Part shown: one piece after another, positions 3,107 to 38,455 of the stretch
How positions within the stretch are numbered: the stretch's first letter is position 1
Layout: each line of letters starts with the position of its first letter
NCBI GenBank assembly: GCA_030674475.1
Contig: JAUSCZ010000035.1
Location: 74,682 to 138,681 of the forward strand
Length of the DNA stretch: 64,000 nucleotides
DNA from: Candidatus Omnitrophota bacterium
GTDB lineage: Bacteria > Omnitrophota > Gorgyraeia > Gygaellales > UBA12090
Reading direction: 5' to 3'
Notes under the pieces: model-generated
Told to the model about the DNA's origin: nothing
What the model saw: only the letters and a program-made list of their open reading frames with translations
Databases searched by the model: none
Program-made: the position numbers and the translations under genes

Positions 3107-3132
3107 TGAGCCAACAAGGCAATATTATTAGA

Positions 3133-3200
3133 AAAATAGGGACACATCCCATTTTTACGTCTCCATCTTTCAAGAAAAAATGGGATGTGTCCCTATTTTT
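3133..3200. terminator. 20-bp perfect inverted repeat hairpin (AAAAATAGGGACACATCCCA ... TGGGATGTGTCCCTATTTTT) with T-runs on both sides
   Basis: Read from the sequence; lies between the bacterioferritin-like gene and the PNPOx-like gene. Confidence 0.7.
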
Positions 3201-3208
3201 CTACTGAA

Positions 3209-3685
3209 CTAACCTTCTAAATTCTCAAACATTTCTTCGTGGGTTATCTCTTCTCCCAGTATGTGAGTTACCAACTGATAAGTATCGTGGTCTTTACCAA
3301 AGGTTTTCTTGGCAATCTTATTATAGACCTCAATTGCCCCAGCCTCAGCCGCTTCCACTAATTTAATAATCCCATCGTAATCGGAAAGTTCCTTGACTAC
3401 TCCCGGATAAGGAGCATTGGCATTTTTCTCTAAGTTAACCGGATTATTAGTGGGAAGTCCGCCCAGCTCAATAATTCTATTAGCCACTTCCTGGGCATGC
3501 TCTAACTCATCCTTGGCAATTTTATTTAAAAACTCCGACATATCTTCATAACCCTTGCCTTCCACGGTTTGAGCCATATACCAATAGGCATAAAAAGCCA
3601 ACCACTCGTCGCAATAGGCCTTATCCAAATCCTTGATTAAATCTTTTAGATCTAAATCCGCTATTTCTTTAGCCTTTCTTCCCAT
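3209..3685 (-). CDS. bacterioferritin-like / ferritin-like di-iron carboxylate protein
   Basis: 158 aa with two E-x2-H motifs (DELEHAQ, EEITHEE) in a four-helix ferritin-like layout, similar to Bfr. Confidence 0.6.
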   Translation of the reverse strand: MGRKAKEIADLDLKDLIKDLDKAYCDEWLAFYAYWYMAQTVEGKGYEDMSEFLNKIAKDELEHAQEVANRIIELGGLPTNNPVNLEKNANAPYPGVVKELSDYDGIIKLVEAAEAGAIEVYNKIAKKTFGKDHDTYQLVTHILGEEITHEEMFENLEG

Positions 3686-6050: not shown

Positions 6051-7124
6051 CTAAAACTTATCATAATATATATGTATCTCCTTGACCCCTTTTTTGGTCA
6101 AGACTTTGATTGCCGCGTCAATCATTGGCGGAGGGCCGCAAAGATAGGCCTCGGTATTTCCGTTAGAACGGATAAAACGCTCAACCGCCTGGGTAACAAA
6201 GCCGGTTTCCCCGGCCCATTTATCCTCAGCCTTAGGCTCGGAAAGCACCGGGATATACTTAAAATTAGGACATTCCTTTTCTAAAGCTTCGAGCTCCTCA
6301 GTATAAAAAATGTCCTTTTTGCTCCTGGCCCCAAAAAAATAGCTGATTGGACGCGGCATACCTTTTTCTTTCAAGTGAAGAAGTATGGAGCGGATAGGAG
6401 CCATGCCGCAGCCTCCCCCGATGCACACTATTTCTCTCTGGGAATCCTCCCGCAAGTAAAAGCTTCCGTAGGGCCCGGTTACGGTTATTTCATCATCAAC
6501 ATCCAAAACCTCGTGTATATAGGAAGAACACAGGCCCCCGGGAACCAAGCGCACAATCAGCTCAATCACGCCCACTTGCGAAGGGGCCGAGGCAACGGAA
6601 TAAGCCCGAAATTCATCAACTTCCGGAATCCGGAATTGGATGTATTGACCGGCCTTAAAACTTATCTTATCCGGCTCCAGCAATTTCATCACCACATACT
6701 TGATATCGTGGGTTAAATCGGCAATCTTAAGCACCCGGGTCTTATATTCCCTGGCCTCTAAGAGGTCTTCGGAAATCAAGACCTCAATGTCATTCTTCAC
6801 CTTCACCTGACAGGCCAGCCGTATGCCTTTGAGCCTATCTTCACGATTCACAAAGACTTCTTCGGTAGGCAGGATATGTCCGCCTCCGCTTAAAACCTCA
6901 ACCTTACAATAGCCGCAGGTAGCCTTGCCTCCGCAGGCTGAGGGGACAAAAATCTTATTCTGGGCAAAATAGCTTAAAAGGCTGTCTCCGCCGTTAACCG
7001 TGAGTATCTTTTCCTTATTAATAGTTACTTTGCACTCTCCGTAGGTAACCAAAAAACGCTCAGCGATAATCAACAAAAGCGCCACCACCACCAGAATCAT
7101 ATCCATTACTAAGATCGAGAGCAT
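6051..7124 (-). CDS. NqrF-like membrane-anchored 2Fe-2S ferredoxin / FAD / NAD(H) oxidoreductase subunit
   Basis: N-terminal TM helix, then CGGKATCGYC...C (plant-type 2Fe-2S), the RAYSVAS FAD motif, and a GGGCGMAP NAD-binding motif. It occupies the position where rnfB normally sits. Confidence 0.7.
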   Translation of the reverse strand: MLSILVMDMILVVVALLLIIAERFLVTYGECKVTINKEKILTVNGGDSLLSYFAQNKIFVPSACGGKATCGYCKVEVLSGGGHILPTEEVFVNREDRLKGIRLACQVKVKNDIEVLISEDLLEAREYKTRVLKIADLTHDIKYVVMKLLEPDKISFKAGQYIQFRIPEVDEFRAYSVASAPSQVGVIELIVRLVPGGLCSSYIHEVLDVDDEITVTGPYGSFYLREDSQREIVCIGGGCGMAPIRSILLHLKEKGMPRPISYFFGARSKKDIFYTEELEALEKECPNFKYIPVLSEPKAEDKWAGETGFVTQAVERFIRSNGNTEAYLCGPPPMIDAAIKVLTKKGVKEIHIYYDKF

Positions 7125-7127
7125 TTT

Positions 7128-7712
7128 CTATTGTAAGGTAATAATACCGGCAAAGCCCATAAAGGCCAGGGCCATCAGGCCGGCGATAATCATTGTTATC
7201 CCCGGTCCGCGCAGGCCTTTGGGAATATCACTCACCAGCATCAGCTTTTCCTTTATCGCCGCCATCAAGATAATGGCCAGGGCCCAGCCGCAGGAGGTGC
7301 CGAAGGAATAACAGACCGTCTGGATAAAGTTATAATTACGTAAAACCATAAAAAGGCAGACCGCCAAAACAATGCAATTAACTGTAATCAAAGGCAAAAA
7401 TATCCCGAATGACGACTGTAGCGGGGGGAAAAACTTTTCAATAAGCATCTCTAACAACTGAACGGTGGCGGCGATGATAATGATAAAGATTAAAAAAGCC
7501 AGAATCTCAGAATGTAAGGGCACCAGCACCTTCCAGTATATCGGCCAATTGATAATCGCGGTTAAAGTTACCACAAAAATTATAGCTATGCCCATACCCA
7601 CGGCAGTTTTGTAATTCTTAGAAATGATTATAAACGGGCACATCCCCAAGATATAAACCAGGGCGATATTATGGGTAAAAATTGAGGCGATTAATATAGT
7701 TAAAGGATTCAT
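7128..7712 (-). CDS. rnfA: Rnf/Nqr ion-translocating complex subunit A (RnfA/NqrE family)
   Basis: 194-aa polytopic membrane protein. Family resemblance and operon position. Confidence 0.75.
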   Translation of the reverse strand: MNPLTILIASIFTHNIALVYILGMCPFIIISKNYKTAVGMGIAIIFVVTLTAIINWPIYWKVLVPLHSEILAFLIFIIIIAATVQLLEMLIEKFFPPLQSSFGIFLPLITVNCIVLAVCLFMVLRNYNFIQTVCYSFGTSCGWALAIILMAAIKEKLMLVSDIPKGLRGPGITMIIAGLMALAFMGFAGIITLQ

Positions 7713-7715
7713 CTC

Positions 7716-8345
7716 TTATTCCGTCTTCTTAGCAATAGTCCTGAATATCCACAAATAAACCCCTAAAAGGAAAAAGGCTCCGGGGGCGATGGTCAAAATC
7801 ACCCAGTTAGTCCAGGCCCCAGGCATCACCCTGTAACCTAAAATAGTGCCAAAGCCCAGAGGTTCGCGGATTAAAGCCATCAAAATCAGCATAAAGCTAT
7901 AACCAACACCATAGCCTAAACCATCCAAGAAAGAAAGCCAGGGCCCATTCTTGATCGCAAAGGCCTCGGCCCGGCCCATCAGGATACAGTTGGTAATAAT
8001 CAGGCCCACATAAGGGCCCATCTCTTCGCTGATAGGAGGAAAATAGGCCTTCAAAACCCTATCCACACAGATTACAAAGGTAGAGATAATTACCATATAA
8101 GCCAGCATCCGCACCCGGGAAGGTATGACATTACGAAAGAACGAAACAAAAAGACAGCTAAAGGCGGTGCATAAAGTAACCCCTATCCCCATAGCCAGGG
8201 CGTTCTCTAAGCGGTTAGTTATGGCCAGCATTGAGCAGATACCCAAAACCACGCAGAATGTGGGATGATCCTGCCACATCCCGATAGTTAAGGTCTTAAA
8301 CCACTTGGTCTGCTTTATGCTTCTTTTAAGCTGTTTCTTGGGCAT
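7716..8345 (-). CDS. rnfE: Rnf/Nqr complex subunit E (RnfE/NqrD family)
   Basis: 209-aa polytopic membrane protein paralogous to the A subunit; operon position. Confidence 0.75.
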   Translation of the reverse strand: MPKKQLKRSIKQTKWFKTLTIGMWQDHPTFCVVLGICSMLAITNRLENALAMGIGVTLCTAFSCLFVSFFRNVIPSRVRMLAYMVIISTFVICVDRVLKAYFPPISEEMGPYVGLIITNCILMGRAEAFAIKNGPWLSFLDGLGYGVGYSFMLILMALIREPLGFGTILGYRVMPGAWTNWVILTIAPGAFFLLGVYLWIFRTIAKKTE

Positions 8346-8435
8346 GGACCCTCGCTCCGCTCGGGAGTAGCCAGAGGCCAGTTGCCAGAGGCCAGATTTT
8401 TTTCTGGCTTCTGGCTTCTGGTTTCTGGTTACTAC
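8346..8435. repeat. 5'-UTR heptamer-repeat element: CCCTCGCTCCGCTCGGGAG-CCAGAGGCCAGTTGCCAGAGGCCAG-T7-CTGGCTTCTGGCTTCTGGTTTCTGGTTACT (copy 1 of 3)
   Basis: Near-identical to 58158-58243 and partially to 56055-56089. Lies immediately 5' of the rnfE ATG. The CCAGAGG and CTGGYTT arms can pair through G-U wobbles. Confidence 0.7.
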
Positions 8436-9007
8436 TTTCCGATCAGCAGGCTGAGCTTCTTTTGTATCGTTTCATTCAGCAATTTTTCTAAGGCCTTGCT
8501 GGAGCCAGTGGCGCCGGTAATCGCGTCTACTTCATTATTAGCCTTGGCCTTGCCGGAAGGCACAAAACTTATTCTAGGAATAATCTCTTTATTTCTAAAG
8601 CCTTTCAAATATTCAAATTCAGCGATCCTGCCGCCTAAACCAGGGGTTTCTTCTTGATGCAGTATCCTCAGCACCCGAATAGTCTTTAAATCCGAATTTA
8701 TGCTGAGTATGCCTTCAATAGTCCCCCATAATCCCGGCCCTTTAAATTTAAAGGCGGTGGTGCCGTCAACAGAAGCATAAAACACGCTATCTCCCTTCTC
8801 TAAGATCTTGACATTTTCATCAAAAAGCTCTAAGACATTTTCCGGACGGTAAGGAATCTCTAAAACATCCAAGACCGCGGATTTTAATTTCAATTCTTCA
8901 TTGCGGGCAATCATTGTCGCGGTTAAGGAGTTGATTCCAAAAAGCAATCCCCCGGAAATCGTTCCCATCGCGACCACAAAAATCAATATTCTTAAAGCGG
9001 ATTTCAT
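8432..9007 (-). CDS. rnfG: Rnf/Nqr complex subunit G (FMN-binding, RnfG/NqrC family)
   Basis: Single N-terminal TM helix, followed by the DAITGATGSS covalent-FMN attachment motif. Confidence 0.8.
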   Translation of the reverse strand: MKSALRILIFVVAMGTISGGLLFGINSLTATMIARNEELKLKSAVLDVLEIPYRPENVLELFDENVKILEKGDSVFYASVDGTTAFKFKGPGLWGTIEGILSINSDLKTIRVLRILHQEETPGLGGRIAEFEYLKGFRNKEIIPRISFVPSGKAKANNEVDAITGATGSSKALEKLLNETIQKKLSLLIGK

Positions 9008-10074
9008 TTCTTGATTTTGGGATATTTTACCCCTAACACCAGACGGTCAATCAAAGGGCTGAAGACATTAATCAAAAGCAGGCTAAACATTACCCCTTCC
9101 ACATAACCGGAAAGTCCGCGGATAAGCACCACCAGAAACCCAAAGAGAACCCCGCAAATCCATTTACCGGCTTTGGTAAAAGGGCTGGTTACCGGATCGG
9201 TGAGCATAAAAAACGCGCCTAACAACAGGCCTCCGCTGGATATCTGAAATAGTGCCGGAGCAAATTTGTCCGGGGCAAAAAAATTGCCAATCCCGGCGCA
9301 AATCACAACCGATAACAAAGCGCTAAGCGGAAGCCGCCAGTTGCTTATTTTGGCAAAAATCAGGAATATCCCGCCGATAAGTATCCCTAAACGGAAGGTC
9401 TCCCCAATACATCCCGGACTTCCTCCTAAAAGCAGATTCCCGAAATCAGCAATTAGGCGCTCATTTCTAAAGGTGATTAAAGGTGTGGCCTGACTGACAG
9501 CATCCGCGGAAAATTTTAAGAATCCTCCCGCGCCTTGATTGAAAGGCATGGGCCAGAAAGTAGTCATCGCCGAGGGAAAGGCCACGCTCAAGAAAATCCT
9601 ACCCACAATCGCCGGATTAAAGATATTCCTGCCGGTTCCCCCAAAAACCTCTTTACCAAAGACCACCCCAAATATTACTCCCAGCGCCACCATCCAAAGA
9701 GGAACATTCGGGGGAAGGATTAAGGGAAAGAGTAAGCCGGTAACCAGAAAACCTTCGTGAATCTCTTTTTTGCGCGCTATGGCAAAAATAGTTTCCACTA
9801 AACCACCGAAGATGTAAGAAACCGCGATTACCGCCAAAACCCTTAAGCCCCATAAATATACCGCGGCAACCACCACCGGAATAAGAGCGGCAATCACCAA
9901 GCTCATATAGCGCTTGATATCCATACAATCCAGTATGTGGGGAACGGTGGTAACCTTATCCGTTCCAAAGAATATCTCATCAGCCGCGCTGATTGCCGGC
10001 TTCCAGGGCGCCAGGAGCTTATTTTTTTGGCTCAGCTTATTTAGATTATTGAAAATATTCCTCAAGATTTTCAT
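9004..10074 (-). CDS. rnfD: Rnf/Nqr complex subunit D (RnfD/NqrB family)
   Basis: 356-aa polytopic membrane protein; operon position. Confidence 0.75.
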   Translation of the reverse strand: MKILRNIFNNLNKLSQKNKLLAPWKPAISAADEIFFGTDKVTTVPHILDCMDIKRYMSLVIAALIPVVVAAVYLWGLRVLAVIAVSYIFGGLVETIFAIARKKEIHEGFLVTGLLFPLILPPNVPLWMVALGVIFGVVFGKEVFGGTGRNIFNPAIVGRIFLSVAFPSAMTTFWPMPFNQGAGGFLKFSADAVSQATPLITFRNERLIADFGNLLLGGSPGCIGETFRLGILIGGIFLIFAKISNWRLPLSALLSVVICAGIGNFFAPDKFAPALFQISSGGLLLGAFFMLTDPVTSPFTKAGKWICGVLFGFLVVLIRGLSGYVEGVMFSLLLINVFSPLIDRLVLGVKYPKIKK

Positions 10075-10083
10075 TTTAGCTTG

Positions 10084-11580
10084 TTATAATTCCTTAGGTC
10101 CGCGGTATTCTTCAATGCCTTTAAGGTTATCAAAATAAGGCAGAATGCACTGGTTACGGTCACAGCCCTGGATAGTCAGCTTTTCCTGCCCTTCTCTTAT
10201 CTGTTTGGCCAAGGGAATCTTGGAAGGGCAAACATAACTACACAGGCCGCACTCAATACAGTTAAATATGCGCAGGTTCATTAAGGTTTCATCAAGGATA
10301 TTACACTGAACATATTTGACTAAAAGATGAGGAATAATCCCCACCGGGCAAACCTCTTCGCAGTAATTACAGCTTATGCAGGGACGCTCCTCACCGTGTT
10401 TATTGGTGTCGCAGGTCTTTTGAATCCTTGGGGAAAGCTTGGCCATAAAGGCATTGGAGTAAGAGTCGCTTTTTAACCCCGGATTCAGAAAAGACAAAAA
10501 CTTTCTTTCGCGGTTTTCCACCAGACCGATTATCTGAGAATAGGTCTTATCTATGGGAAGGCTTAGATCCTTAAGTTCAAATCCAGTCAGCAGGCCGTTA
10601 AGCACAAAGCGCGCGCTAAGGCCTTCCTTAATTCTTCCCTCAACCACCTCTTTTAAGGGAGTGCCGATCCTGGCCTTGATATGCAGGGGCTCCTTGAATG
10701 CCGGGCCGCAAAGAGCGATAGTCCTTTCAATCAGGGGCTTACCCTCAATCACCGCCTCATAACTAAGCAAAACCGCCTGAAGATTCAAAATCACCGCTCC
10801 TACATTTGCCGCGGAATAACCATAGGGGAACTTCTGCTTTAAGATAGTCGGGACCAGCATCTCATCATAGCCTTGAGGATACTTAGGCTCCAGGGGATAA
10901 AGCTCCAGCCAATCATAAGCAGAAGTAAGTTTTTCTATCTCCTCCAGGATTTTCCGGCTGTGGATGCTTAAAGCCAAATACACCCGGGCATGAGGCATAA
11001 TTTTACGCAGTATCTTTATGCCTTCAATCAGGTTTAAAATATTTTTACCTTTAAGTAAAAGTTCCGGAGAAATATTGTATGGCTCTGAACCCACCCCGTG
11101 AACAATCAGGCTTTTAGCCTCTTTAGGCAGAATTATCGAACTACGCATCCGGGTTGGGATGCCTTCCCGGTCAAGGGCGGTAACCCCGGAAAGGTAAAGT
11201 ATTTTTTCTATCTCCTCAGAAGCAAGGCTTTCCCAATTATTTATGGCTCCCGGCAATTTTTGGTATCGCGGATTGCCGTCTCCTTTAATTGAAACCATAA
11301 GGCAGTCGCGCTTAAAATAATTTACCCTCTTAACCTCTTCCACTACGCCGTTAACACTGGAATGCACCGGGCTGGACACACCATACTCGCTATGGCCGAT
11401 AATCTGCCCGGCCAAAACCCCCTCTCCAGCCTTAACCAAGCAGTCTCCTTCTCCGCCGAAACCCTGGCGCAGAGGTATGGTAACCCTAAGAGGAACTCTT
11501 ACCTCTTCTAAAGTATCCTTGGGCTGGCCTTCAAAGTTTATAAATCTGTATCCGCCTGAAAATGTCTTGGATTTTCGCAT
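10084..11580 (-). CDS. rnfC: Rnf complex subunit C (two 4Fe-4S ferredoxin motifs)
   Basis: RnfC/NqrA-type N-terminal domain, plus C-terminal CISCNYCEEVCP and CIECGLCSYVCP. The dicluster is RnfC-specific and absent from NqrA. Confidence 0.8.
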   Translation of the reverse strand: MRKSKTFSGGYRFINFEGQPKDTLEEVRVPLRVTIPLRQGFGGEGDCLVKAGEGVLAGQIIGHSEYGVSSPVHSSVNGVVEEVKRVNYFKRDCLMVSIKGDGNPRYQKLPGAINNWESLASEEIEKILYLSGVTALDREGIPTRMRSSIILPKEAKSLIVHGVGSEPYNISPELLLKGKNILNLIEGIKILRKIMPHARVYLALSIHSRKILEEIEKLTSAYDWLELYPLEPKYPQGYDEMLVPTILKQKFPYGYSAANVGAVILNLQAVLLSYEAVIEGKPLIERTIALCGPAFKEPLHIKARIGTPLKEVVEGRIKEGLSARFVLNGLLTGFELKDLSLPIDKTYSQIIGLVENRERKFLSFLNPGLKSDSYSNAFMAKLSPRIQKTCDTNKHGEERPCISCNYCEEVCPVGIIPHLLVKYVQCNILDETLMNLRIFNCIECGLCSYVCPSKIPLAKQIREGQEKLTIQGCDRNQCILPYFDNLKGIEEYRGPKEL

Positions 11581-11753
11581 GCTGGCTTGTTAATAATTTC
11601 ACAATCTAAATTTAAATAAAAAATGCTATTTTTGACGCAAACAGCATAACGGTTAAAATAACCCAAAAAACACCGTCTGTCAAGTTAAATCAGTAGGGGT
11701 GTCAAGCCAAATTAGAAATGTCGTATTATTATATTGGGATGACAGTTAAATCA

Positions 11754-11782
11754 GTAGGGGCAGGTTCAGAACCTGCCCCTAC
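11754..11782. repeat. REP-like palindrome variant GTAGGGGCAGGTTCAGAACCTGCCCCTAC overlapping the stop codon of the MiaB-like gene; likely terminator
   Basis: Perfect inverted repeat read from the sequence. Its left arm GTTAAATCAGTAGGGG is duplicated at 11684-11699. Confidence 0.65.
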
Positions 11783-13140
11783 ACTTTTTCCGCGATAAGG
11801 CCGTCTTTGTGGATTTTTAGCGGCCGGGCGGTAACAATTGTATTTACCGCGATTCCCGGCCCCTCAGGGAGAAATACCTTGATATAATTTCCGCTATGGC
11901 TGGGGAAAAATCCATCATCCGCGAAGCCGCCTGGCGATTCAACCAGCACGTCCAGATCCTTACCAATATATTGCCGGCAGAAATCCCGCGCTAATTCCTG
12001 AGCCAATTCCCGCGCCTGCTTTATCCTATCTTTGATAATCTCGGGCCTCACCGTTGCCGGAAATCTCCAAGCGGCTGTATTCTTACGTGGGCTAAAAGGA
12101 AAGATGTGTATCTTTGCCGGGCGGACTTCTCTTAAAAAATTAAGGGTATTCTTAAAATTTTCCTCTTCTTCCCCGGGAAAACCCACCATAATATCGGTAG
12201 TCAACCCGATATCCGGCATAAGCCTCCTCAGCTTAAGGATTAACTCGCGGCAATCTTCAGCTGAGGCCTTGCGGTTCATCAACTTCAATAGTGTATCATC
12301 CCCACTTTGAAAAGAAATATGCAGATGAGGCATCAGCTTCTTAGAGGAAGCCATCTTTTCTGTCAGGCAATCGCGGACATCCAGGGCTTCAATTGAGCTA
12401 AGCCGGATACGCGAAATCCCGTCAATTTCCTCTAAGGCTTCAATAACCCTAAGCAAGCCGTCTTTAAGGCCCAGATCCTTTCCATAAGCGCCTAAGCAAA
12501 TCCCGCAAAGCACTATCTCCTTATAGCCGTTTTCAGCTAAACCTCTGGCTTCCTCAATAATTTCCACTAAAAAGCGGCTGCGGGATGAACCGCGCAATCT
12601 GGGAATTATACAATAAGAACAGCCGTTATCACAACCGTCCTGAACCTTCAGGAATGCCCGGGTGTGCCTATGAAAAGCGCTGATGGTTCGACTACGCTCA
12701 CCATCAATCCTGAGCGAAATCGAAGGACTGATGGTTGGTTTTTTAATACCTGATAACAGTTCAACTCTGGGAAGTAACTGTGTCATTGCGAGGGGTTTTT
12801 CAGTGTTAGCTAAAATAAAATCGGCAAGACGGTCTTTCTCTTGGTTTCCTAAAACCCCTGCCACCCCTTTAAAGCGCTTTAGCTTCTCCGGGTCATTTTC
12901 CGCGGAACAACCGGTAACAAAAACCCGGGCCCGGGGGTGAGAGCGAGAGAGTTTGCGAATCTCCTCTTGAGATAAAGTATCGGCCCTGCGGGTAACCGCG
13001 CAGGTATTCACTATATACACATCCGCGCCGGGTGAATCCTTGCTCTCTTTAAATCCCAGGGCAATCATTCTCTCCCGCAGAACCTGGCTTTCATATTGAT
13101 TAACCTTACAACCTAAAGTTTTAACCTCAAATGTTTTCAT
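11779..13140 (-). CDS. MiaB/RimO-family radical SAM methylthiotransferase (ORF called to 13173; probable start at 13140, MKTFEVKTLGC)
   Basis: N-terminal MTTase cysteines (KTLGCKVNQYES), a radical SAM CSYC motif, and a C-terminal TRAM-like region. Confidence 0.8.
   Translation of the reverse strand: MKTFEVKTLGCKVNQYESQVLRERMIALGFKESKDSPGADVYIVNTCAVTRRADTLSQEEIRKLSRSHPRARVFVTGCSAENDPEKLKRFKGVAGVLGNQEKDRLADFILANTEKPLAMTQLLPRVELLSGIKKPTISPSISLRIDGERSRTISAFHRHTRAFLKVQDGCDNGCSYCIIPRLRGSSRSRFLVEIIEEARGLAENGYKEIVLCGICLGAYGKDLGLKDGLLRVIEALEEIDGISRIRLSSIEALDVRDCLTEKMASSKKLMPHLHISFQSGDDTLLKLMNRKASAEDCRELILKLRRLMPDIGLTTDIMVGFPGEEEENFKNTLNFLREVRPAKIHIFPFSPRKNTAAWRFPATVRPEIIKDRIKQARELAQELARDFCRQYIGKDLDVLVESPGGFADDGFFPSHSGNYIKVFLPEGPGIAVNTIVTARPLKIHKDGLIAEKV
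12680..12732. repeat. in-frame intragenic palindromic element, family A copy 1 (CTGATGGTTCGACTACGCTCACCATCAATCCTGAGCGAAATCGAAGGACTGAT)
   Basis: 52 of 53 nt identical to 13693-13745, which lies inside a different gene and reading frame. Confidence 0.8.
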
Positions 13141-19495: not shown

Positions 19496-19728
19496 TGCGG
19501 GTAATATTTAAAAGAGGAGATTAAATCAAGCGGATTTAGCAGTAATTTTACCTGGGAAAGATAACTAATGCGCCGTAAAATTAGTTTTTAGTGGTAAAAC
19601 TGTCGTTTTGAACAATAGAACAATCAGAACATTAGACCGCAATTGAGTTTTTGTTTGTCTATTGTTCTATTGTCTATTGCTCAATTGCTCTGCGCGCTGT
19701 CATATTAAAAATTAATTGGACAGCGCGC

Positions 19729-19839: not shown

Positions 19840-20253
19840 CTAAGGACAACTCACCGCAGAACAACTTGCACAACCAGCGCCAGTCTTACTGGTCGTGCCG
19901 TTCTCATACATGTTTATAGTATAGTTGGTAGTGCCACAGGGATTTTTTTCCGAATTTCTTAGCGCCCGAGCTACAACAGTATTCGCAGACTCATCAACTA
20001 CCGTATAGGTAAAATAGGTGCCATTGGTAGTATTGTCAATATCTAAATTATCAAAACTATTAGTATAATTCCCGTTTTCTAAATAATAGCGCGTCTGGGC
20101 GCCGCGGATAGCGGCTAAGTTGGTTAGGGCTTCGCTCTGGCGGGAGCGCTCCACGGTTTTGGTATACTGGGGTATGGCCAGGGCGGACAGGATGCCAATG
20201 ATCACCACCACTACCACCAGTTCGATTATATTAAAGCCGGAATTTTTATTCAT
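19840..20253 (-). CDS. type IV pilin / pseudopilin
   Basis: GFNIIELVVVVVIIGILSALAIPQY prepilin N-terminus. Confidence 0.75.
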   Translation of the reverse strand: MNKNSGFNIIELVVVVVIIGILSALAIPQYTKTVERSRQSEALTNLAAIRGAQTRYYLENGNYTNSFDNLDIDNTTNGTYFTYTVVDESANTVVARALRNSEKNPCGTTNYTINMYENGTTSKTGAGCASCSAVSCP

Positions 20254-20257
20254 TTTT

Positions 20258-20327
20258 ACCCCTCCCCGCCTCCCCTTGCTAAGGGGAGGATTTCTTGTCG
20301 TAGGGGCGGGTTCGAACCCGCCCCTAC
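20258..20327. repeat. composite intergenic element: SD-sequestering hairpin module (CCCCTCCCCGCCTCCCCTTGCTAAGGGGAGGATTTCTT) plus REP palindrome GTAGGGGCGGGTTCGAACCCGCCCCTAC
   Basis: Fills the whole 76-nt intergenic gap and ends 4 nt from the pilin ATG. Copies occur at 37752-37821, 38456-38495 and 59380-59424, with related arms at 26623-26760. Confidence 0.8.
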
Positions 20328-20329
20328 TA

Positions 20330-25666: not shown

Positions 25667-26078
25667 TTTCTTCCTCCCTTTTAATCACCATCGCCCTGGA
25701 TGGCGCAGGATATGAAAACATCTCTAATTTATAAACCACCTCAATTCCCTCTTTGGTTATGGCGGTAATAGCCGCGTCTTGCACCTTGTCCCCGATTCTA
25801 AAAATCTTACCCCCAATAATCACCTGAGGCACCGGCCCTCCGGCCACCAGCCCCTCCACAAGGATTGCCGGAGGCACAATTTTTTCTTTAACAGAAACGG
25901 CTTCCGGCGGCTTAACCACAGGCGCGGCCCCGGGAAGCTGTTTTTCAAAGGGGTCACGCAGATTAAAGGCGGCATATTCCGTTTTCACGGTTTGGGCTTG
26001 GGCCAGGGATAGAAACCCAAGAATAAACAAATAAATACTCAAACCCGATATGGGCATTCTTGAAGCGCTATGTCTCAT
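25656..26078 (-). CDS. PilP-like pilus assembly lipoprotein (hypothetical)
   Basis: Signal peptide, proline-rich linker and a small beta domain. Located between the secretin and PilO-like genes. Confidence 0.45.
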   Translation of the reverse strand: MRHSASRMPISGLSIYLFILGFLSLAQAQTVKTEYAAFNLRDPFEKQLPGAAPVVKPPEAVSVKEKIVPPAILVEGLVAGGPVPQVIIGGKIFRIGDKVQDAAITAITKEGIEVVYKLEMFSYPAPSRAMVIKREEENDK

Positions 26079-26611
26079 TGCCCCTTAATATAGGTAATAC
26101 CCACCGTCATAGTCAAGGATAGAATATTTGGTTCAGCCGGATTATCGCTATTTTTAAGCGAAATGCTTTCAATCTGCAGTATATCTTTCTGAGACTCTAA
26201 AACGCTTATAAATTTAGCCAGGTTATGATAACTGCCTTTAAGCGCCAGCTCAAACAATGCCGCGCTGGAAAAATCACTATTTTGCTCTTTAGCGGGAGAA
26301 ACAGAGGCCACCTTCACTCCGGCTTTAGACGCGAATTCGTGAAAGGACTGCGCGCTCCAAGCCGGCTCTTTCTTAAGATACGGCCCGGCGTCCTGAGATA
26401 TTTTCTTATCCAACCCGGCCAACTCCTGAGCCAACTGAATCCTTTGCTCTTGGATGGCTATCTCTTCTTTTAAGGCCGCGGTTTTATCTTTTTGGATCTT
26501 ATATATCCGCGAGGCCGCCAGTAAAGCCAAAATTAGAATCACCAAAAAAATAAGCTTATCCTTATTTTTTAATATTGCCTGAAGATTTATATTATTAATT
26601 GAAAAAGCCAT
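26075..26611 (-). CDS. PilO/PilN-like bitopic pilus alignment protein (ORF track extends to 26806 through repeat DNA; start likely at 26611, MAFSINN)
   Basis: TM helix, a coiled-coil (AALKEEIAIQEQRIQLAQELAGL) and a C-terminal alpha/beta domain. The upstream in-frame extension is the repeat element region. Confidence 0.55.
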   Translation of the reverse strand: MAFSINNINLQAILKNKDKLIFLVILILALLAASRIYKIQKDKTAALKEEIAIQEQRIQLAQELAGLDKKISQDAGPYLKKEPAWSAQSFHEFASKAGVKVASVSPAKEQNSDFSSAALFELALKGSYHNLAKFISVLESQKDILQIESISLKNSDNPAEPNILSLTMTVGITYIKGQ

Positions 26612-26622
26612 AGTCTTTACCC

Positions 26623-26760
26623 GTAGGGGCGGGTTCGAACCCGCCCCTACCCCCGATAAGGGGAGGATTTCTTTCCGCCTGCCCCGCCAGCGGCGGTGGC
26701 CTCCCCCTGATAAAGGAAGTTTTCTTATCCCCTCCTTTACAAGGAGGGGTAGGGGAGGTA
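26623..26760. repeat. composite repeat: REP palindrome GTAGGGGCGGGTTCGAACCCGCCCCTAC followed by several CCCC/GGGGAGG-type hairpins
   Basis: Read directly from the sequence. Sits in the intergenic region between the PilM-like stop (26766) and the PilO-like start (26611). Confidence 0.75.
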
Positions 26761-26765
26761 TTTTT

Positions 26766-28319
26766 TTAGCTGCCGGAAATTTCAAAAACCGTAATCTTGT
26801 ATCCACCGCTCTGGGTATTGCGGGTAGAGGTTATCTCCAGGCGGCTTAAGCCAGCCATAAAATCAGGGCTCTCTTTAAGCTTTTTTAAGAAATCAGCTAT
26901 TGCCTCTTCCTCTCGCGCCTTATCCCCCAGATAAATCGCGCCTTTAAGTAAAAGCGATTTTGCTTTATCCTTTACCCCGGCCACAAGGTCAAACTGCTCA
27001 ATCCACAAGCCGGTGCGGACTGTCTCAGGCAGGACATTAAAAGACACAGTCAAGGACACCCGGGAAGCAATTAATTCCTGGATAAATAAAAGTTTTTTCT
27101 TATATTCCACCCTTCTCTGACGCAGGCCATCCAAATCCAGAATGCCTAAGTTCGCCGGGGCCAAGGCGCTTTCAGCCTCAGATTTTATGCGCTCTAAATT
27201 CTTAGCAGTGCTGAACTGTTCGGGCAAAGGAAAACCATAGGCCGCGGCCACTACTACCGCCGCCAGCACTAAAGGCCGCTTAACCGTATCAAAGCTAAGA
27301 GTGAATGCCGGAGCGGGAGCTGATATGTCTTTAGGCGCGCTCAAGCGGTATTCTTTGCGCGATTTTAATAAATCTACAGATAAATTTACCTTTATGGTAT
27401 CTCTGAGGCCTACGGCACAGGCCTTAAACGCGTCCAAGTCAGTCAAGGTGTTTAAAGCGCTATTCTGATCTAATTCCAATAACTGCACCTCTATACTTAA
27501 GTTTTTGCTCAATTCGGAGATTAGCCCGGGATTAGCATTTTTAGCCACCAGGATAATCTTATCCACCGAAGAGCCGGAAAATTGCCGGCGGAAATAACCT
27601 AGGGAAACCCTGAGCTCGCTGGTTAAGCGTTCCTGAGAAACCACCTCCGCGCCGCTTCCTGTGGAAGGCGCGTCCTGGGCCCGGGCGAGCCGGACATCCC
27701 GGCTAAAACAGGGAAAACCCGCGTTCACTATGGAAAACTCCATATCCAAATCATCATCAATAGCCATAAACGCGATAGACTGCTTAAGGTCAAGCTGTTT
27801 AGCGGCTGAAATTATCCTGAGCAAGGCAAAACTGGCCGATTCAATAGCCTTTAACTGAATACCCATTTGCTTAAATAAGCTAAGATAATAATCAAAGTTA
27901 CTCCTGGTAGCCGCCACATAGAAGATATCCATCTTGTCTGAACCTTTATTTAAGCGATGCTGATAGTCAAAAACCAGGTCCTCGGTTTTAAAAGGGAGAT
28001 ACTTCCTGGCCTCAAAGCTTATCCCGGAGGCAATTTCGGATTTTACCAGAGAAGGAATCTGAAAACCCCGGATAAAAAGGTCCTTGCTGGTAAGGCCAAG
28101 CACTGCTTCCCGAGCGCTAAATTTATTCTCTTTAAGAAATCCCTTGATCTCCCGCGACAAGTTGGCCTGAGCGCTGTCTTCGGCTGTCGGAGTGCCGGTT
28201 AAAGCCTTATCCGCCGCAACCGCTATAGCTAAGCTGGCCTGCCGGATAATATCCTTGCCCCGCAGTTCAACCGCGACAATCTTATCTTTGCCAAAATATA
28301 TTCCTAATTTATTTCCCAT
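26766..28319 (-). CDS. pilM: type IV pilus assembly protein PilM (actin-like ATPase fold), probably fused to PilN-like C-terminal TM segment
   Basis: PilM-like N-terminus (MGNKLGIYFGKDKIVAVEL), with a C-terminal TM segment LVLAAVVVAAAYGF. Confidence 0.65.
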   Translation of the reverse strand: MGNKLGIYFGKDKIVAVELRGKDIIRQASLAIAVAADKALTGTPTAEDSAQANLSREIKGFLKENKFSAREAVLGLTSKDLFIRGFQIPSLVKSEIASGISFEARKYLPFKTEDLVFDYQHRLNKGSDKMDIFYVAATRSNFDYYLSLFKQMGIQLKAIESASFALLRIISAAKQLDLKQSIAFMAIDDDLDMEFSIVNAGFPCFSRDVRLARAQDAPSTGSGAEVVSQERLTSELRVSLGYFRRQFSGSSVDKIILVAKNANPGLISELSKNLSIEVQLLELDQNSALNTLTDLDAFKACAVGLRDTIKVNLSVDLLKSRKEYRLSAPKDISAPAPAFTLSFDTVKRPLVLAAVVVAAAYGFPLPEQFSTAKNLERIKSEAESALAPANLGILDLDGLRQRRVEYKKKLLFIQELIASRVSLTVSFNVLPETVRTGLWIEQFDLVAGVKDKAKSLLLKGAIYLGDKAREEEAIADFLKKLKESPDFMAGLSRLEITSTRNTQSGGYKITVFEISGS

Positions 28320-28641: not shown

Positions 28642-28758
28642 AATCTGCCTCTGGCGCTTAGATTTTACTTGATTCTGAGCTCTGCGAAGAATCTTAAGGA
28701 ACAATCTGCCTCTGGCGCTTAGATTTTACTTGATTCTGAGCTCTGCGAAGAATCTTAA
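28642..28758. repeat. two tandem 61-bp direct repeats (AATCTGCCTCTGGCGCTTAGATTTTACTTGATTCTGAGCTCTGCGAAGAATCTTAA...), motif AGATTTTACTTG present 3 times
   Basis: Read from the sequence. Lies upstream of the excisionase-like gene, so these are candidate operator/iteron sites or a small RNA. Confidence 0.7.
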
Positions 28759-28913: not shown

Positions 28914-29297
28914 CTATTTAAACAGCTCATCAATAATCGCGAAGTGCTTATCTAAGGTGAGAATTACTGCTTTATTCTCTTTGGCCAAAACTGCTAAATA
29001 ACAATCAATTAACGATATGGTTTTACCCTGTTTCCTGAGTTTGTTCGCTAAAAACCCTGCCTGTTGCCAGGTGGAATCACTCTCGTTCAAAATTTTAACT
29101 ACTGAAGCTAAATCCGAGATAAGCTCAGTTTCTTTTTCAGACCTAACCCCCTGGATCAATTCGGCCAGGACAAGCTGACAAGTGGCGGCAACATTAAGAA
29201 GGAGGGCTGATTCTATCTCTTTAGTTATGGGGTGAGAAGTTTTCTTAAGATACTCTATCCAGGCTGAGGTATCAATAAGAACTAATTTAGCGCTCAT
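28914..29297 (-). CDS. vapC: type II toxin VapC (PIN domain ribonuclease)
   Basis: LIDTSAWIEY with the conserved acidic Asp, ~127 aa, overlapping an upstream antitoxin gene. Confidence 0.8.
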   Translation of the reverse strand: MSAKLVLIDTSAWIEYLKKTSHPITKEIESALLLNVAATCQLVLAELIQGVRSEKETELISDLASVVKILNESDSTWQQAGFLANKLRKQGKTISLIDCYLAVLAKENKAVILTLDKHFAIIDELFK

Positions 29298-29694: not shown

Positions 29695-30090
29695 TCAACT
29701 AATGATATTTACTGACAGGTGCTTCCTGTAATTTTCAAAGTCGTTATCGGTAGTGAAAATTATGAGGTTTTCCAAATGAGCCACAGCGCAGATTAAAAAG
29801 TCTGTTGTAGAACCTTGAATCCCCCTGCTTCTGCAGATATTGCTGAATTCCGCCGCTTTCTCAAAATGCTCTTTTTTAAGAACAATATCTTCAAAAGCGG
29901 AAAGTATGTCTTTTAACTTATTGAACTGCTTGGAATCGGGGATCCCGGATAGAATTTCCTGCCTTACGGGACCTATTATAAAGACCCTGCCGTCATTGAT
30001 GAGGCCTTTTAACCTGGAGGTTAATTCTGCGTCAGGATTTCTATGCCGCAGGACAGCTGACCAAACGCAGGTATCAACCAGCACCTTCAT
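29695..30090 (-). CDS. vapC: type II toxin VapC (PIN domain), second copy
   Basis: MKVLVDTCVWSAVLRH..., ~131 aa, overlapping an upstream antitoxin. Confidence 0.8.
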   Translation of the reverse strand: MKVLVDTCVWSAVLRHRNPDAELTSRLKGLINDGRVFIIGPVRQEILSGIPDSKQFNKLKDILSAFEDIVLKKEHFEKAAEFSNICRSRGIQGSTTDFLICAVAHLENLIIFTTDNDFENYRKHLSVNIIS

Positions 30091-30317
30091 CGCCTTCTAG
30101 CTTTCTTGTAATCATAATCTTTATCAAAATCAACACTGCCGAACAAATCGGCAATCTCCTGGCGCTTCTTATGCGCGATATACTCAAGCATAGCGGCAGT
30201 TACCGCCTCTTTTTTAGTCCTATGATGCCCTATCTTCTGAGTCTGAATAATCAACTTGTCATCTAAGGCCAGATTGGTCGCCATCTTACACACCTCCTTA
30301 CACATAAAGGATAACAC
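30087..30317 (-). CDS. vapB: type II antitoxin VapB-like (probable start at 30284, MATNLALDD)
   Basis: NLALDDKLI...KKEAVTAAMLEYI VapB-type pattern, with a GGAGG SD upstream. Confidence 0.7.
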   Translation of the reverse strand: MLSFMCKEVCKMATNLALDDKLIIQTQKIGHHRTKKEAVTAAMLEYIAHKKRQEIADLFGSVDFDKDYDYKKARRR

Positions 30318-33317: not shown

Positions 33318-35054
33318 TTATTCCTTTATCTTTACAACATTTAAAGACAGGTATTCTACATTTACTTCAAAATCATCATAAAGCACACCGCAATATTCCA
33401 CTTTTGGAAGGAAATAATAAAGCCTTGCCTCGTAAGTCTTGCCCGGAGCTAAAACAATAGAGGGAACATAGGTCGTGCCAAGTATTGAGAATGTCGCGGA
33501 CAGACTCCTCACATTCATCATGCTTTTATGTACCGGCACACCTGATCCTTTCTCTGTAATTCCAACCAGGGTATAAAAATTTATTCCTTCATCAGTAATG
33601 TCGTGGTTAATTAATACCTGCCAGATAATATTCAAAGCTTCACCGGTCTTAGCTACAAATTCATAGGTAACCCCTTCATGTGTAGTGTCGGGGTAGGTAC
33701 CTTTAATTTCTCTAAACAGCCCTGGGTTATCAACCAAACACGAAGTAACATCACTGGCATATCCGGCACATTGGCCAGCAGTGTATGCAAGGCTATCACA
33801 ACCCGGACAGGCAGTCCTCTCCTCGCACTTACTTTCAGTACAATTTTTATCGAAACCTGGGTCTCTTGTTGTTTCCCCATCTTCAAGCATTACACCAGAG
33901 CACACATTCTCTTCGCAGCAGGACTTACTGTCCTCGCATCTCTCATAATTATTGGCATAAGCGCTACAAGCACTAATGCAAGTCTTAAACGCATCTTTGA
34001 GCTTGTAAGTATAGGATGCCACTTTCACCTTGGCGATGCATTCTACATATCCGTTACAAGTACAAGTATCGCAGGTAGTAACATAAGTTGTACTGCAAGA
34101 AGGAGGCGGCGGAGTCCAGGGAGGAGGCGGCGGAGTCCAAGAAGTACAAGTAGTTACAGGAACACTAACACAGTTACAACTATACGTGCAAGAGTCAGAC
34201 ACATTATCTACTATATTACTGCAAGAAGTAGCACTACTACTATTGCAATCCCCAGCCGGATCCCGAGAAGGACAACTATTGTCTAAGGTACAAGAAGAAC
34301 ATCCGACTGGTGTGCGAGATGTTCCGTCATTTTCCCAGACATAGGTTACATCATAATAAGAAGTCAAACCATCGCATCTGGGCGGGCCCGAATTCTCGGA
34401 ACAGGCCTGAAAAATAGGGCTGAGGCTTGGCCCGCAGGTTGCCGGACAACTCCAGATCCTATACCCATCAATATCGGTTCCTGTTACGGTACAGTCATCA
34501 GAGCAGTTTGGCGTCAGCTCATCGCTATCCGCGTCCGGACAACCTCGTCTCTGCAGGCCATAAGGAGAACCTGATGAAACTGAGCCAGAACTACAGGTAA
34601 GATTTTCACAATAAGTAGAATCGTCGCTTGATCTCGAACCGCCAGTACCTGTTGTGCCTACACCACATTCAGTTTGCGCGCAATCATCAACCTGAAAAGG
34701 AGGCTCAGTGCAATTATAATTAGCCAACGTATCATGATCACCTGAACTGCACTTAATTGCTTTGGGAAAAGAAGCAGTGGTCAAACAGCAATCCGGACAT
34801 TCCTTCTTAAGCTCAACACATTTATTACATTCTGAAACACTGCTAAGTGCGGTCGAACAATCTCCTCCGGTTAACAGATCTTTTCCGTCTAACTGGCTAA
34901 GAATTATTGGGTCAGTCCCGTAATCCTTGCTCTCTGTATCAGAAGTATAATTAGACGGCAGGTATTTTATGCGCTTATCCTTAGGATAGGCTGGGCTATT
35001 AAAGAAAGCCAGAAATAACAAGAGTAGAATTAAGGCCTTTTTATTTTTTACCAT
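33318..35054 (-). CDS. large secreted cysteine/threonine/serine-rich protein with PPPPWTPPPP motif; candidate pilus-tip adhesin
   Basis: Signal peptide, then a ~400-aa segment carrying dozens of Cys (CSSC, CTCNGYVEC, CCEENVC). The operon context with pseudopilins supports a pilus-associated role. Confidence 0.5.
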   Translation of the reverse strand: MVKNKKALILLLLFLAFFNSPAYPKDKRIKYLPSNYTSDTESKDYGTDPIILSQLDGKDLLTGGDCSTALSSVSECNKCVELKKECPDCCLTTASFPKAIKCSSGDHDTLANYNCTEPPFQVDDCAQTECGVGTTGTGGSRSSDDSTYCENLTCSSGSVSSGSPYGLQRRGCPDADSDELTPNCSDDCTVTGTDIDGYRIWSCPATCGPSLSPIFQACSENSGPPRCDGLTSYYDVTYVWENDGTSRTPVGCSSCTLDNSCPSRDPAGDCNSSSATSCSNIVDNVSDSCTYSCNCVSVPVTTCTSWTPPPPPWTPPPPSCSTTYVTTCDTCTCNGYVECIAKVKVASYTYKLKDAFKTCISACSAYANNYERCEDSKSCCEENVCSGVMLEDGETTRDPGFDKNCTESKCEERTACPGCDSLAYTAGQCAGYASDVTSCLVDNPGLFREIKGTYPDTTHEGVTYEFVAKTGEALNIIWQVLINHDITDEGINFYTLVGITEKGSGVPVHKSMMNVRSLSATFSILGTTYVPSIVLAPGKTYEARLYYFLPKVEYCGVLYDDFEVNVEYLSLNVVKIKE

Positions 35055-35473
35055 TGGTCACATCCAGTTCTATTAATAAGGCCGCCTTGGTTAGTAATAG
35101 TCATATTCCTACCACTACAGGCCAAACCGGAAACCGCGCGGGTAGCCGTGGCAGTAAAGCTTGGGCTGGTGGTGGCGTTAATAGAATAAGTAAAACTGTC
35201 TCCTTCTAAATCAATCCCTAAATTCTCAGTATCATTAGTATACTCTCCCTCGTTCAAATAATACCTCTGCTGGGCAGAGTAGATTAATTGCAGGTTAGCC
35301 TCGGCTTCTTTGGCCTTATTTTTCTCTGAAGATCGGCTAAAATTACCCATATTCAGGCTAACCAAAATCCCGATAATTACCAAAACCACCAGCAACTCAA
35401 TCATAGTAAACCCCGTTAGAAGCCTCTTGCCTCTTACAGGTTGCTCATTAACTTCTAACGGGGCAGGCCCCAT
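35048..35473 (-). CDS. type IV pilin with 21-aa leader (ORF track starts at TTG 35485; ATG at 35473 has an AGGAGA SD upstream)
   Basis: ...GKRLLTG|FTMIELLVVLVIIGILVS prepilin cleavage/methylation site. Confidence 0.7.
   Translation of the reverse strand: MGPAPLEVNEQPVRGKRLLTGFTMIELLVVLVIIGILVSLNMGNFSRSSEKNKAKEAEANLQLIYSAQQRYYLNEGEYTNDTENLGIDLEGDSFTYSINATTSPSFTATATRAVSGLACSGRNMTITNQGGLINRTGCDQW
35410..35470. repeat. family B palindromic element copy 2, encoding the pilin leader peptide
   Basis: About 85% identical to 16961-17019. The CCCCGTTAGAAG / CTTCTAACGGGG arms are an inverted repeat. Confidence 0.75.
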
Positions 35474-37747: not shown

Positions 37748-37751
37748 TTTT

Positions 37752-38450: not shown

Positions 38451-38455
38451 TTTCT

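Follow-up and report, generated by a model that had tools for sequence, protein, structure and literature searches.

The subject of this analysis was a pair of near-identical stretches of about 90 nt in a 64,000-nucleotide piece of DNA from a Candidatus Omnitrophota bacterium (the window, meaning the whole stretch that was analysed; coordinates refer to it unless another locus is named by its L number). One stretch lies between an rnfG-like and an rnfE-like gene and the other between argJ and argB, and they are real, non-random, structured repeats that front internal genes of two unrelated operons. With a probability of roughly two in three, they are two full copies, accompanied by one half copy, of a non-coding repeat that is composite in build, dispersed between genes and similar to repetitive extragenic palindromes (REP), bacterial interspersed mosaic elements (BIME) and miniature inverted-repeat transposable elements (MITE), in an Omnitrophota genome rich in such elements. 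The best reading of the two operons is that they share a hitch-hiking repeat and not a control circuit. The family exists, its pairing covaries, it fronts unrelated genes, and near-identical strains may have it, lack it or carry something else in its place at one and the same junction.

Layout and folding of the two copies

All genes concerned lie on the minus strand, and the mRNA sense is the reverse complement of the window letters, not the strand as written that the original prediction had taken for mRNA. In mRNA sense each full copy runs from a stop codon through four (W)AACCAG heptads, a loop of five to seven A residues and four inverted (W)CUGGNN heptads to a module CUCCCGAGCGGAGCGAGGG (the S module), which is followed by 3 nt and AUG. 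Copy 1 (8343-8434, minus strand) fills the junction from the rnfG-like stop codon to the RnfE/NqrD-like AUG and consists of UAG (stop, 8432-8434), directly followed by the 5' arm UAACCAG AAACCAG AAGCCAG AAGCCAG (8404-8431), the loop A7 (8397-8403, T7 on the plus strand), the 3' arm UCUGGCC UCUGGCA ACUGGCC UCUGGCUA (8368-8396), S (8349-8367), UCC (8346-8348) and the AUG (8343-8345); its arms pair in helices of 5-6 bp with small internal loops between them. Copy 2 (58155-58245, minus strand) fills the junction from the argJ stop codon (UAA, 58243-58245) to the argB AUG (58155-58157). Its 5' arm UAACCAG AAACCAG UAACCAG UAACCAG (58214-58241) begins 1 nt after the stop codon and is followed by the loop A5 (58209-58213, T5 on the plus strand), the 3' arm UCUGGUC UCUGGCA ACUGGCC UCUGGUUU (58180-58208), an S module identical to that of copy 1 (58161-58179) and CAC (58158-58160).

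The near-identity reported earlier for 8346-8435 and 58158-58243 was borne out by alignment of the copies (about 90% identity over about 90 nt, with nine substitutions and one 2-nt indel), and the T5-7 run noted there corresponds to the two loops. Both copies share the non-repetitive S module and an irregular GCAACUGGCC unit; the loop-adjacent G-C pair of copy 1 is an A-U pair in copy 2, a compensatory change. The plus-strand 19-mer CCCTCGCTCCGCTCGGGAG occurs exactly twice in the window (8349-8367 and 58161-58179), and none of 100 shuffles contained any match. The heptad pattern CTGGYTN was matched 14 times in the window against 0.1 expected.

The half copy is a solo array of the 5'-arm type, UAACCAG AAACCAG UAACCAG CAACCAG (56058-56087, minus strand, coordinates from Tandem Repeats Finder), without inverted partner and without S. 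As had been stated for a shorter array before argF, it encodes the final ArgD residues and the stop codon (argD open reading frame (ORF) 56069-57256), and it stops 3 nt short of the argF AUG (56052-56054). A degenerate array (GUAAUCAG UAAUUAG AAGAUAG AGACCAG) occupies the argD-argF junction in L112 and L179.

As sense RNA, the element was predicted to fold into a long, imperfect hairpin with a small S hairpin after it (-46.5 kcal/mol for copy 1 and -39.6 kcal/mol for copy 2, z score about -5), consistent with the earlier description of a structured repeat directly before internal genes of two unrelated operons. The long hairpin excludes the Shine-Dalgarno (SD) sequence. The antisense (plus) strand folds much better (-62.5 and -48.1 kcal/mol for copies 1 and 2); for the hairpin alone, plus and mRNA strands gave -51.1 versus -35.8 kcal/mol in copy 1 and -42.3 versus -32.7 kcal/mol in copy 2. 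The G-U wobbles that had been placed in the mRNA are A.C mismatches there, and G.U pairs form only in the antisense strand. When 20 hairpins of this kind were compared, neither strand was consistently the better folder, which gives no sign of selection on the mRNA strand and is more in keeping with palindromic DNA than with selection on a single RNA strand; strand-specific RNA selection was rejected for lack of a steady sense/antisense difference.

Searches with Rfam at the gathering threshold over the whole window returned just a tRNA and a c-di-GMP-I riboswitch elsewhere and nothing at either copy, and a relaxed threshold over both copies returned only meaningless miRNA-like hairpin matches. 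Terminator and promoter scans at both copies gave no sense-strand signal. Three familiar kinds of structure were rejected: an intrinsic terminator, because the S module and not U residues follows the hairpin and no terminator-like site is present on the sense strand; a riboswitch or other Rfam-type leader, because there is no Rfam match, no conservation at orthologous junctions and no relation among the downstream genes; and an integron attC site, because the hairpin bases GUAACCAG ... CUGGUUUC are unlike the R''/R' core sites (RYYYAAC ... GTTRRRY), which are absent, and the operons are syntenic.

The S module is 19 nt long, GC-rich and predicted to fold as CCC-GA-GC-[GGA]-GC-GA-GGG, with a CCC/GGG stem, tandem GA/GA and a GCGGAGC mini-hairpin. 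Its 3' half contains GGAG and GAGG SD-like tracts and ends in GGAGCGAGGG, which sits 2-4 nt before the AUG across the family and 3 nt before it in both window copies, where it had been described as abutting the AUG. In the CCC/GGG stem, the GAGGG tract is partly paired to an anti-SD-like CUCCC tract. Loop variants were GGA, GCA, GAA, AAUA and GAUA; the inner stem is kept by compensatory changes (GC..GC to AC..GU in L122 and to GU..AC in L179), and in L147 the GA/GA positions become Watson-Crick pairs. Fits to the mini-hairpin motif discussed below were GCGGAGC (window and most copies), GCGCAGC (L117), GCGAAGC (L126 and L013) and GCGATAGC (L176). An ORF of at least 85 aa started 2-4 nt downstream of S in nine of 12 modules examined, which upholds the proposed bias toward start codons; five of these nine are rnfE starts retrieved for that purpose, and the unbiased genome matches gave three of five.

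The exact 19-mer CTCCCGAGCGGAGCGAGGG was found at 111 loci (L001-L111) of species-representative genomes from many phyla (Acidobacteriota, Gemmatimonadota, Chloroflexota, Omnitrophota, Nealsonbacteria of the Candidate Phyla Radiation and others), each time within lineage-specific larger repeats; in Acidobacteriota, for instance, it lies in the loop of a CGCGGCGCGGA...TCCGCGCCGCG hairpin. About four matches were estimated by chance at uniform base composition, and more in GC-rich genomes. Thirteen of the 111 matches lie in loci of at most 49% GC, for which fewer than one was estimated. Scans of viral contigs with the S module and with an 18-mer of the 3' arm gave no matches and thus no sign of a phage vector.

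Family design and turnover among relatives

Ten S-bearing elements were aligned (alignment A2) and share the layout (NNNNCAG)x4, loop, (WCUGNNN)x4, S, 2-4 nt and start codon. RNAalifold, run on the family alignment, picked a register shifted by one heptad because the repeats permit slipped pairing; the full-register hairpin was therefore tested explicitly against shuffles and slid partners. This hairpin is built of four 5-bp helices (N-C-A-G-W with W-C-U-G-N) with 2x2 internal loops between them, and the positions flanking CAG/CUG swap A-U for U-A or C-G. Standard pairs were found in 71.7% of cells against 63.5 +/- 1.8 in shuffles (reached by 0 of 500), and the value dropped to 34-43% when the partners were slid by 1-3 columns. 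Cells changed on both sides of a pair numbered 41 against 24.2 in shuffles (0 of 500). Pairing in the family thus covaries, as a check suggested in the original prediction had asked, with the caveat that the sequences are related and that a palindromic origin would yield the same signal.

A covariance model derived from the family alignment (R1) recovered full-length members in two Thermomicrobiales species (L007, 60-240, minus strand, 72 bits; L094, 415-590, minus strand, 68 bits), in both upstream of the same gene (MALIDLY...). These read UAG-(GACUCAG)x4 ... (UCCUGAG)x3-S-C-AUG, with a 45-nt GC-rich insert between the arms, and show that the composite design is not limited to Omnitrophota. 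R1 also found two elements that lack S: a CAG-heptad hairpin from an Acidobacteriaceae genome (L001) and a close relative of the window arms in L121. In the Omnitrophota loci L013, L019, L030 and L038, S follows a heptad hairpin of the same design and another unit sequence, and it precedes the starts of murA, a small ORF and rpsJ in L019, L030 and L038; within Omnitrophota the family thereby fronts genes as unrelated as murA, rpsJ, rnfE and argB. The modules occur in varied arrangements: S is combined with CAG-heptad hairpins in the window and in L019, L030, L038, L013, L144 and L122, and with a CGCAGAAC hairpin in L117; hairpins without S were seen in L145, L174, L130 and L121; and a mini-palindrome is nested within the hairpins at 38505-38665 of the window and in L179. 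Such a mosaic placed between operon genes corresponds to what defines BIMEs, with no sequence similarity to those of E. coli.

The arg and rnf operon genes that flank the element are syntenic in all relatives, and the coding sequence beside the argJ-argB junction is near-identical throughout while the insert differs. At this junction, L179 (argB 97.0% nucleotide identity) carries a 135-nt hairpin of CACGGAT units with a period of about 10 nt, and L112 (94.2%) a hairpin of 4 + 4 UUCAUUGAG nonamers with a 9-nt period. Among more distant relatives, L174 (argB 79% at the amino acid level) has a CGCGGAAC-type hairpin, L176 (74%) a CACGAAU hairpin homologous to that of L179, L181 (74%) tandem repeats only, and L182 (67%) is nearly empty, with a 20-nt spacer. 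The rnfG-rnfE junction is empty in about 25 of 38 distinct metagenomic loci, where stop and start lie 1-14 nt apart, and is filled in the other 13 with at least eight kinds of insert. L117 (95% amino acid identity) keeps two CCAG heptads, S and the same UCC-AUG joint, with a CGCAGAAC hairpin between, and L122 carries a degenerate CCAG/CUGG hairpin with an S variant. At dapA-dapB, three unrelated elements are found in the window, L179 and L112. Where a junction is empty, the ribosome-binding site would be part of the final codons of the upstream gene or of a spacer of about 10 nt.

The same hairpin families recur at different junctions. The CGCGGAAC type was found at rnfG-rnfE in L117 and at argJ-argB in L174, and the UUUAUUGAG type at argJ-argB in L112 and at rnfE-rnfA in L117, L145 and L172; the rnfE-rnfA junction of the window is empty, with a 3-nt spacer. 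This recurrence, together with the turnover among close strains, points to dispersed repeats that are quickly gained and lost and not to a conserved leader. A further palindromic family, UAGGGACA...UGUCCCUA (about 60-100 nt), was observed at different junctions in different Omnitrophota genomes (window 3116-3216; L112 10855-10930, at argB-argD; L118 and L123 at rnfG-rnfE; L181 4750-4800).

Repeats and genes in the surrounding sequence

A count over 372 kb of Omnitrophota sequence gave 91 tandem arrays with periods of 5-12. The period was 7 in 60 of them, lengths clustered at 27-33 nt, and 58 were intergenic or at gene edges, though about 92% of the sequence is ORF. An in-frame array of about 31-33 nt within argC has the same position in several lineages (window 59664-59694; L112 8471-8503; L176 8482-8513; L181 4472-4498), and its unit is CCACCAG, CCATCAG or CCACAAG; heptad arrays, including this coding one, evolve in place by concerted evolution. 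Perfect heptamer arrays were also seen inside lysA and dapF of L112 and L179. Within the window, other hairpins with arms of tandem heptads or octads are located at 38505-38665, 45478-45540 and 19600-19700, and there are many solo heptamer arrays. A GTAG-headed perfect 28-nt palindrome, GTAGGGGCGGGTTCGAACCCGCCCCTAC, is present in four copies (20300-20327, 26623-26650, 37794-37821 and a variant at 11751-11784); it has the classic REP-like form, and the copy at 26623-26650 lies inside an ORF called at 26075-26806.

An anti-SD/SD hairpin module, CCUCCCCUUAACAAGGGGAGGCGGGGAGGGG, adjoins four start codons (1-7 nt), those of a pilin-like gene, exbD, exbB and argJ, at 20251-20328, 37745-37822, 38450-38527 and 59373-59450 (also 26641-26679). 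Its form is AAAUCCUCCCCUUAACAAGGGGAGGCGGGGAGGGG(UA...)AUG, a hairpin followed by a free GGGGAGGGG tract. The copy at argC-argJ lengthens ArgC by about 13 residues relative to L112, where argC and argJ overlap. In lysA, the diaminopimelate decarboxylase gene (51300-52610, minus strand), a net insertion of 14 nt relative to L112 near 51600-51620 shifts the frame and splits the ORF at 51484; a mini-palindrome, CCTGCCGGACGAGCAGGCAGG, lies there within a GCGGAAA heptamer array. The gene could be a pseudogene, the difference could be genuine variation between strains, or the assembly could be at fault. This CCTGCCGGACGAGCAGGCAGG also occurs in the hairpins at 38505-38665 and at argJ-argB of L179, and in the argF-argG spacer of L176.

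The window contains a gene for a Y1 (IS200-type HUH) transposase of 228 aa that resembles REP-associated tyrosine transposases (RAYT) (62617-63303, minus strand; Pfam PF01797, 55 bits). It scored 70.1 bits against NCBIfam REP_Tyr_transpos, for which the cut-off is 80, and has hundreds of homologues in Omnitrophota. The gene is flanked by AAGAAGACGCTTTAYATAAC at 62579-62603 and 63368-63443: two 36-nt copies stand in tandem on its upstream side and a single inverted copy on its downstream side. A homologue of 64% identity in L183 has like flanks (GACGCTTTAC ... TAAAGCGTC). The Y1 protein is a candidate trans-acting enzyme for the hairpin repeats of this genome.

NCBIfam confirmed ArgJ, ArgB, ArgD and ornithine carbamoyltransferase, and by ArgB and its other proteins the window belongs to Candidatus Omnitrophota. 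The gene called rnfE in the original prediction (7716-8345) scored best as NqrD/RnfE-like, below the curated cut-offs. The Rnf/Nqr cluster in which it lies (6051-11580, minus strand) is of hybrid type: RnfC and RnfD score above the Rnf cut-offs and an RnfG-like gene is present, the E and A subunits have NqrD and NqrE (NqrE/RnfA) as top scores, and the final gene is a bona fide NqrF instead of RnfB (TIGR01941, 311.6 bits; cut-off 295). A minor pilin (19840-20253, minus strand) matches Pfam ComP_DUS, the Neisseria DNA-uptake-sequence receptor (E = 4e-10), in a genome crowded with short dispersed repeats. The c-di-GMP-I riboswitch (35812-35924, minus strand; Rfam RF01051, 47 bits, gathering score 35) belongs to a type IV pilus/type II secretion gene region, where a pilin-like gene (35048-35485) follows about 330 nt downstream. 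A perfect 61-nt tandem duplication (28642-28758, 1.9 copies, 100% identity) was found upstream of two PIN-domain toxin modules, one at 28914-29297 with a small upstream ORF and the other at 29695-30090 with a VapB antitoxin (30087-30317); a further repeat, of 41 nt, is at 28869 and 29643.

Known elements, rival readings and meaning

The focal repeat was compared with REP/BIME elements and with REPINs, the REP-based hairpins that are associated with RAYTs (Bertels & Rainey 2011, PMC3116915; PMC3337134). Like these, it is short, palindromic, extragenic and located within operons. It shares with REP/BIME a mosaic modular build and inverted halves that form a long hairpin, and with REPIN-RAYT systems the presence of a single-copy RAYT-like Y1 gene with inverted-repeat flanks in the same genome. 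It differs in that neither S nor the arms have the conserved GTAG/GTGG head (the GTAG ahead of copies 1 and 3 is due to the local stop-codon context only), in that its arms are four 7-nt units and not one REP, in that it carries a ribosome-binding site 2-4 nt from the start codon, and in that the repeat flanking the RAYT-like gene is not the dispersed focal repeat. Compared with MITEs, it shows inverted arms, no visible target-site duplication and no identified parent element. Since the repeat lacks the GTAG head and shared transposase flanks, shows no target-site duplication and is not a riboswitch, terminator or attC site, it was grouped, as a variant, with elements of a kind already known.

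The BOX elements of Streptococcus pneumoniae and the Correia/NEMIS elements of Neisseria lie between genes, are modular or made of inverted repeats and are transcribed together with their neighbours; they fold into stable stem-loops and can affect mRNA processing or expression. In BOX, an internal module of about 45 nt is tandemly repeated in variable number. To our knowledge, the focal repeat has no sequence similarity to either, and it is set apart by its 7-nt units, with no target-site duplication seen. In the early mRNA of phage T7, processing at intercistronic RNase III hairpins gives the upstream message a stabilising 3' hairpin and keeps the ribosome-binding site of the downstream one free. 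Both the T7 sites and the focal elements are long imperfect hairpins with internal loops exactly between cistrons, and a T7-type processing hairpin is a plausible model for how the focal element may behave as RNA. The resemblance is functional only; the focal elements are polymorphic repeats and not fixed processing sites.

The closest counterparts to the heptads are the TAACTGA repeats of Beggiatoaceae, cyanobacteria and Bacteroidetes, which are intergenic and lie 1 nt upstream of start codons (MacGregor 2015, PMC4679880). These too are tandem heptamers in sets of 2-6 that are mostly intergenic and end just before starts, may overlap the upstream stop codon, are scattered across phyla and have units that give stops in all three frames; read as ACUGAUA, the unit has the WCUGNNN form of the focal 3' arm. 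The focal heptads differ in forming inverted pairs that make a hairpin, in a unit that varies by copy and genome, and in the conserved non-repetitive S module with its SD; in the 'Maribeggiatoa' genome, one of 170 TAACTGA sets is an indirect repeat (PMC4679880). Heptanucleotides are the commonest long simple repeats in prokaryotes, according to Mrazek 2007 as quoted in PMC4679880. The units of cyanobacterial STRR repeats may also resemble NNNNCAG heptads, a likeness given no weight here. S itself resembles the mini-hairpins d(GCGNAGC) and d(GCGNNAGC) described by Hirao and colleagues, whose stability is extraordinary in DNA and lower in RNA (PMC13037366). GCGGAGC, GCGCAGC, GCGAAGC and GCGAUAGC fit this motif exactly, with variation in the loop position(s) and both stem pairs kept, in two cases by compensation. 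The published examples are isolated oligonucleotides or belong to phage origins and promoters, whereas the focal ones lie within CCC-GA...GA-GGG in a dispersed repeat by start codons.

Under the REP/BIME/MITE-like reading, the repeat would spread as DNA, through transposition in trans or ectopic recombination, with single-stranded DNA hairpins and a Y1/RAYT-type enzyme as possible means. Insertion inside essential operons would be tolerated because the S module supplies an SD and would replace the displaced ribosome-binding site. In a genome that is about 92% coding, with intercistronic gaps of 3-15 nt, any tolerated insertion would look as if placed exactly in front of a start codon. Once transcribed, the stem-loop (-33 to -46 kcal/mol) would be a generic intercistronic REP-type structure that answers to no specific signal; it would block 3' exonucleases or serve as a processing site, and it would loosen translational coupling. 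In the mRNA the element would thus probably behave much as other intercistronic stem-loops do.

Several observations weigh against this reading. A search for AAGAAGACGCTTTAYATAAC in the window and all loci found it only beside the Y1 gene or its remnant; because it is unrelated to the focal element, the RAYT link is only circumstantial. Only two full copies and one half copy (2.5) occur in the 64-kb window. Comparison of filled and empty junctions gave no target-site duplication and no defined element ends, and ectopic gene conversion could also have given the two copies. The argJ-argB junction carries some hairpin in six of eight lineages examined, so a stem-loop of whatever sequence could be under selection there. 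Conservation of the CAG/CUG cores extends across phyla, and CAG/CTG is present in 17 of 47 heptad units against 7.5 +/- 2.5 expected, which hints at a sequence-specific recognition that the favoured model leaves unexplained.

This enrichment, the near-invariance of CAG/CUG cores at 7-nt spacing while other positions vary, and the WCUGNNN form of TAACTGA, 1 nt before starts (PMC4679880), would suit a periodic platform in which 7-nt-spaced CAG/CUG (NAG) triplets on RNA or single-stranded DNA are multivalent sites for an oligomeric protein. Candidates are HutP/TRAP-like, S1, cold-shock or CsrA-type binders (as proposed for TAACTGA repeats) or a CTG-recognising transposase or primase. Such a platform was given a small chance: only about a third of heptad arrays contain CAG/CTG, hairpin families of 9-11-nt period fill the same junctions, the triplets are base-paired in the hairpin instead of exposed, and no candidate protein was identified. 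A dedicated cis-regulatory RNA leader that co-regulates the internal rnf/nqr and arg genes, by a trans-acting RNA or protein or by SD sequestration, is also unlikely. Orthologous junctions of near-identical strains do not conserve the element, and most rnfG-rnfE junctions are empty; the downstream genes (murA, rpsJ, rnfE, argB) are unrelated; Rfam gave no match; the antisense strand is the better folder in both copies and neither strand is favoured over the 20 hairpins; and the SD lies outside the long hairpin. These points stand against the fixed 2-4-nt spacing to start codons, the stable sense fold (z about -5), the covarying pairs and the partial pairing of GAGGG with the CUCCC tract in the S stem, all of which such a leader would account for. 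The shared post-transcriptional control element or binding site of the original prediction, argued in part from G-U pairs on the wrong strand, is not supported on the same evidence.

Purely local microsatellites, with heptads arising by replication slippage, hairpins by template switching in quasi-palindromes and no movement between loci, were judged quite improbable. Heptamer arrays are indeed everywhere and cluster at 27-33 nt, those in argC and at argD-argF stay put and drift by single bases, CCAG/CUGG remnants persist at rnfG-rnfE in L117 and L122, and heptanucleotides head the long simple repeats (Mrazek 2007, as quoted in PMC4679880). Slippage in place would nevertheless have to produce about 90 shared nt, including S and the irregular unit, at loci 50 kb apart, the identical S 19-mer with CAG heptads in other phyla, and hairpin families that recur at different junctions. 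A function at the DNA level or on the antisense strand is very improbable. The single-stranded DNA hairpin or the plus-strand transcript would on this account be a priming or replication signal, in which CTG triplets adjoin a mini-hairpin (compare phage G4-type origins), a hairpin promoter like that of phage N4, or a DNA-uptake signal. The idea is one of resemblance. GCGGAGC is the mini-hairpin of the phage N4 promoters, and primase sites are marked by hairpins of this kind (PMC13037366); the window encodes a ComP_DUS-like minor pilin (19840-20253); and the hairpin alone folds far better on the plus strand (-51.1 versus -35.8 and -42.3 versus -32.7 kcal/mol). GCGGAGC is, however, on the gene-sense strand and not on the better-folding plus strand, the strand asymmetry is not common to other members, and there is neither a promoter or terminator signal nor a viral match.

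A bolder and tentative proposal, for which we would give the longer odds, is that the CAG/CUG heptad hairpin and the GCGNAGC SD module form unrecognised cross-phylum mobile 'intercistronic cassettes', inserted or swapped exactly from stop to start, bringing their own ribosome-binding site, with the CAG/CUG cores recognised by a dedicated enzyme or binding protein. The members observed come from Omnitrophota and Thermomicrobiales; Acidobacteriota have related forms, and the family may be akin to the TAACTGA repeats. Near-identical strains would then differ in the coupling and balance of operon genes.

If the REP/BIME/MITE-like reading is right, the rnf/nqr and arg operons are not co-regulated, and a regulatory-looking repeat is a genomic hitch-hiker. 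A literature search for tandem intergenic repeats in Omnitrophota found nothing, and three features are undescribed in the literature searched: arms composed of 7-nt units, four to an arm, whose CAG/CUG cores are conserved; a module of 19 nt, identical across phyla, that brings a ribosome-binding site at a fixed distance from the start codon; and replacement of the whole intercistronic sequence between strains whose flanking genes are 94-97% identical. For the annotation of uncultivated genomes, such elements matter in that they lengthen or truncate gene ends and in one case frameshift a gene. They also bear on strain-level variation in operon expression and on a long-standing puzzle, the clustering of heptanucleotide repeats at gene starts in bacterial lineages scattered over the tree.

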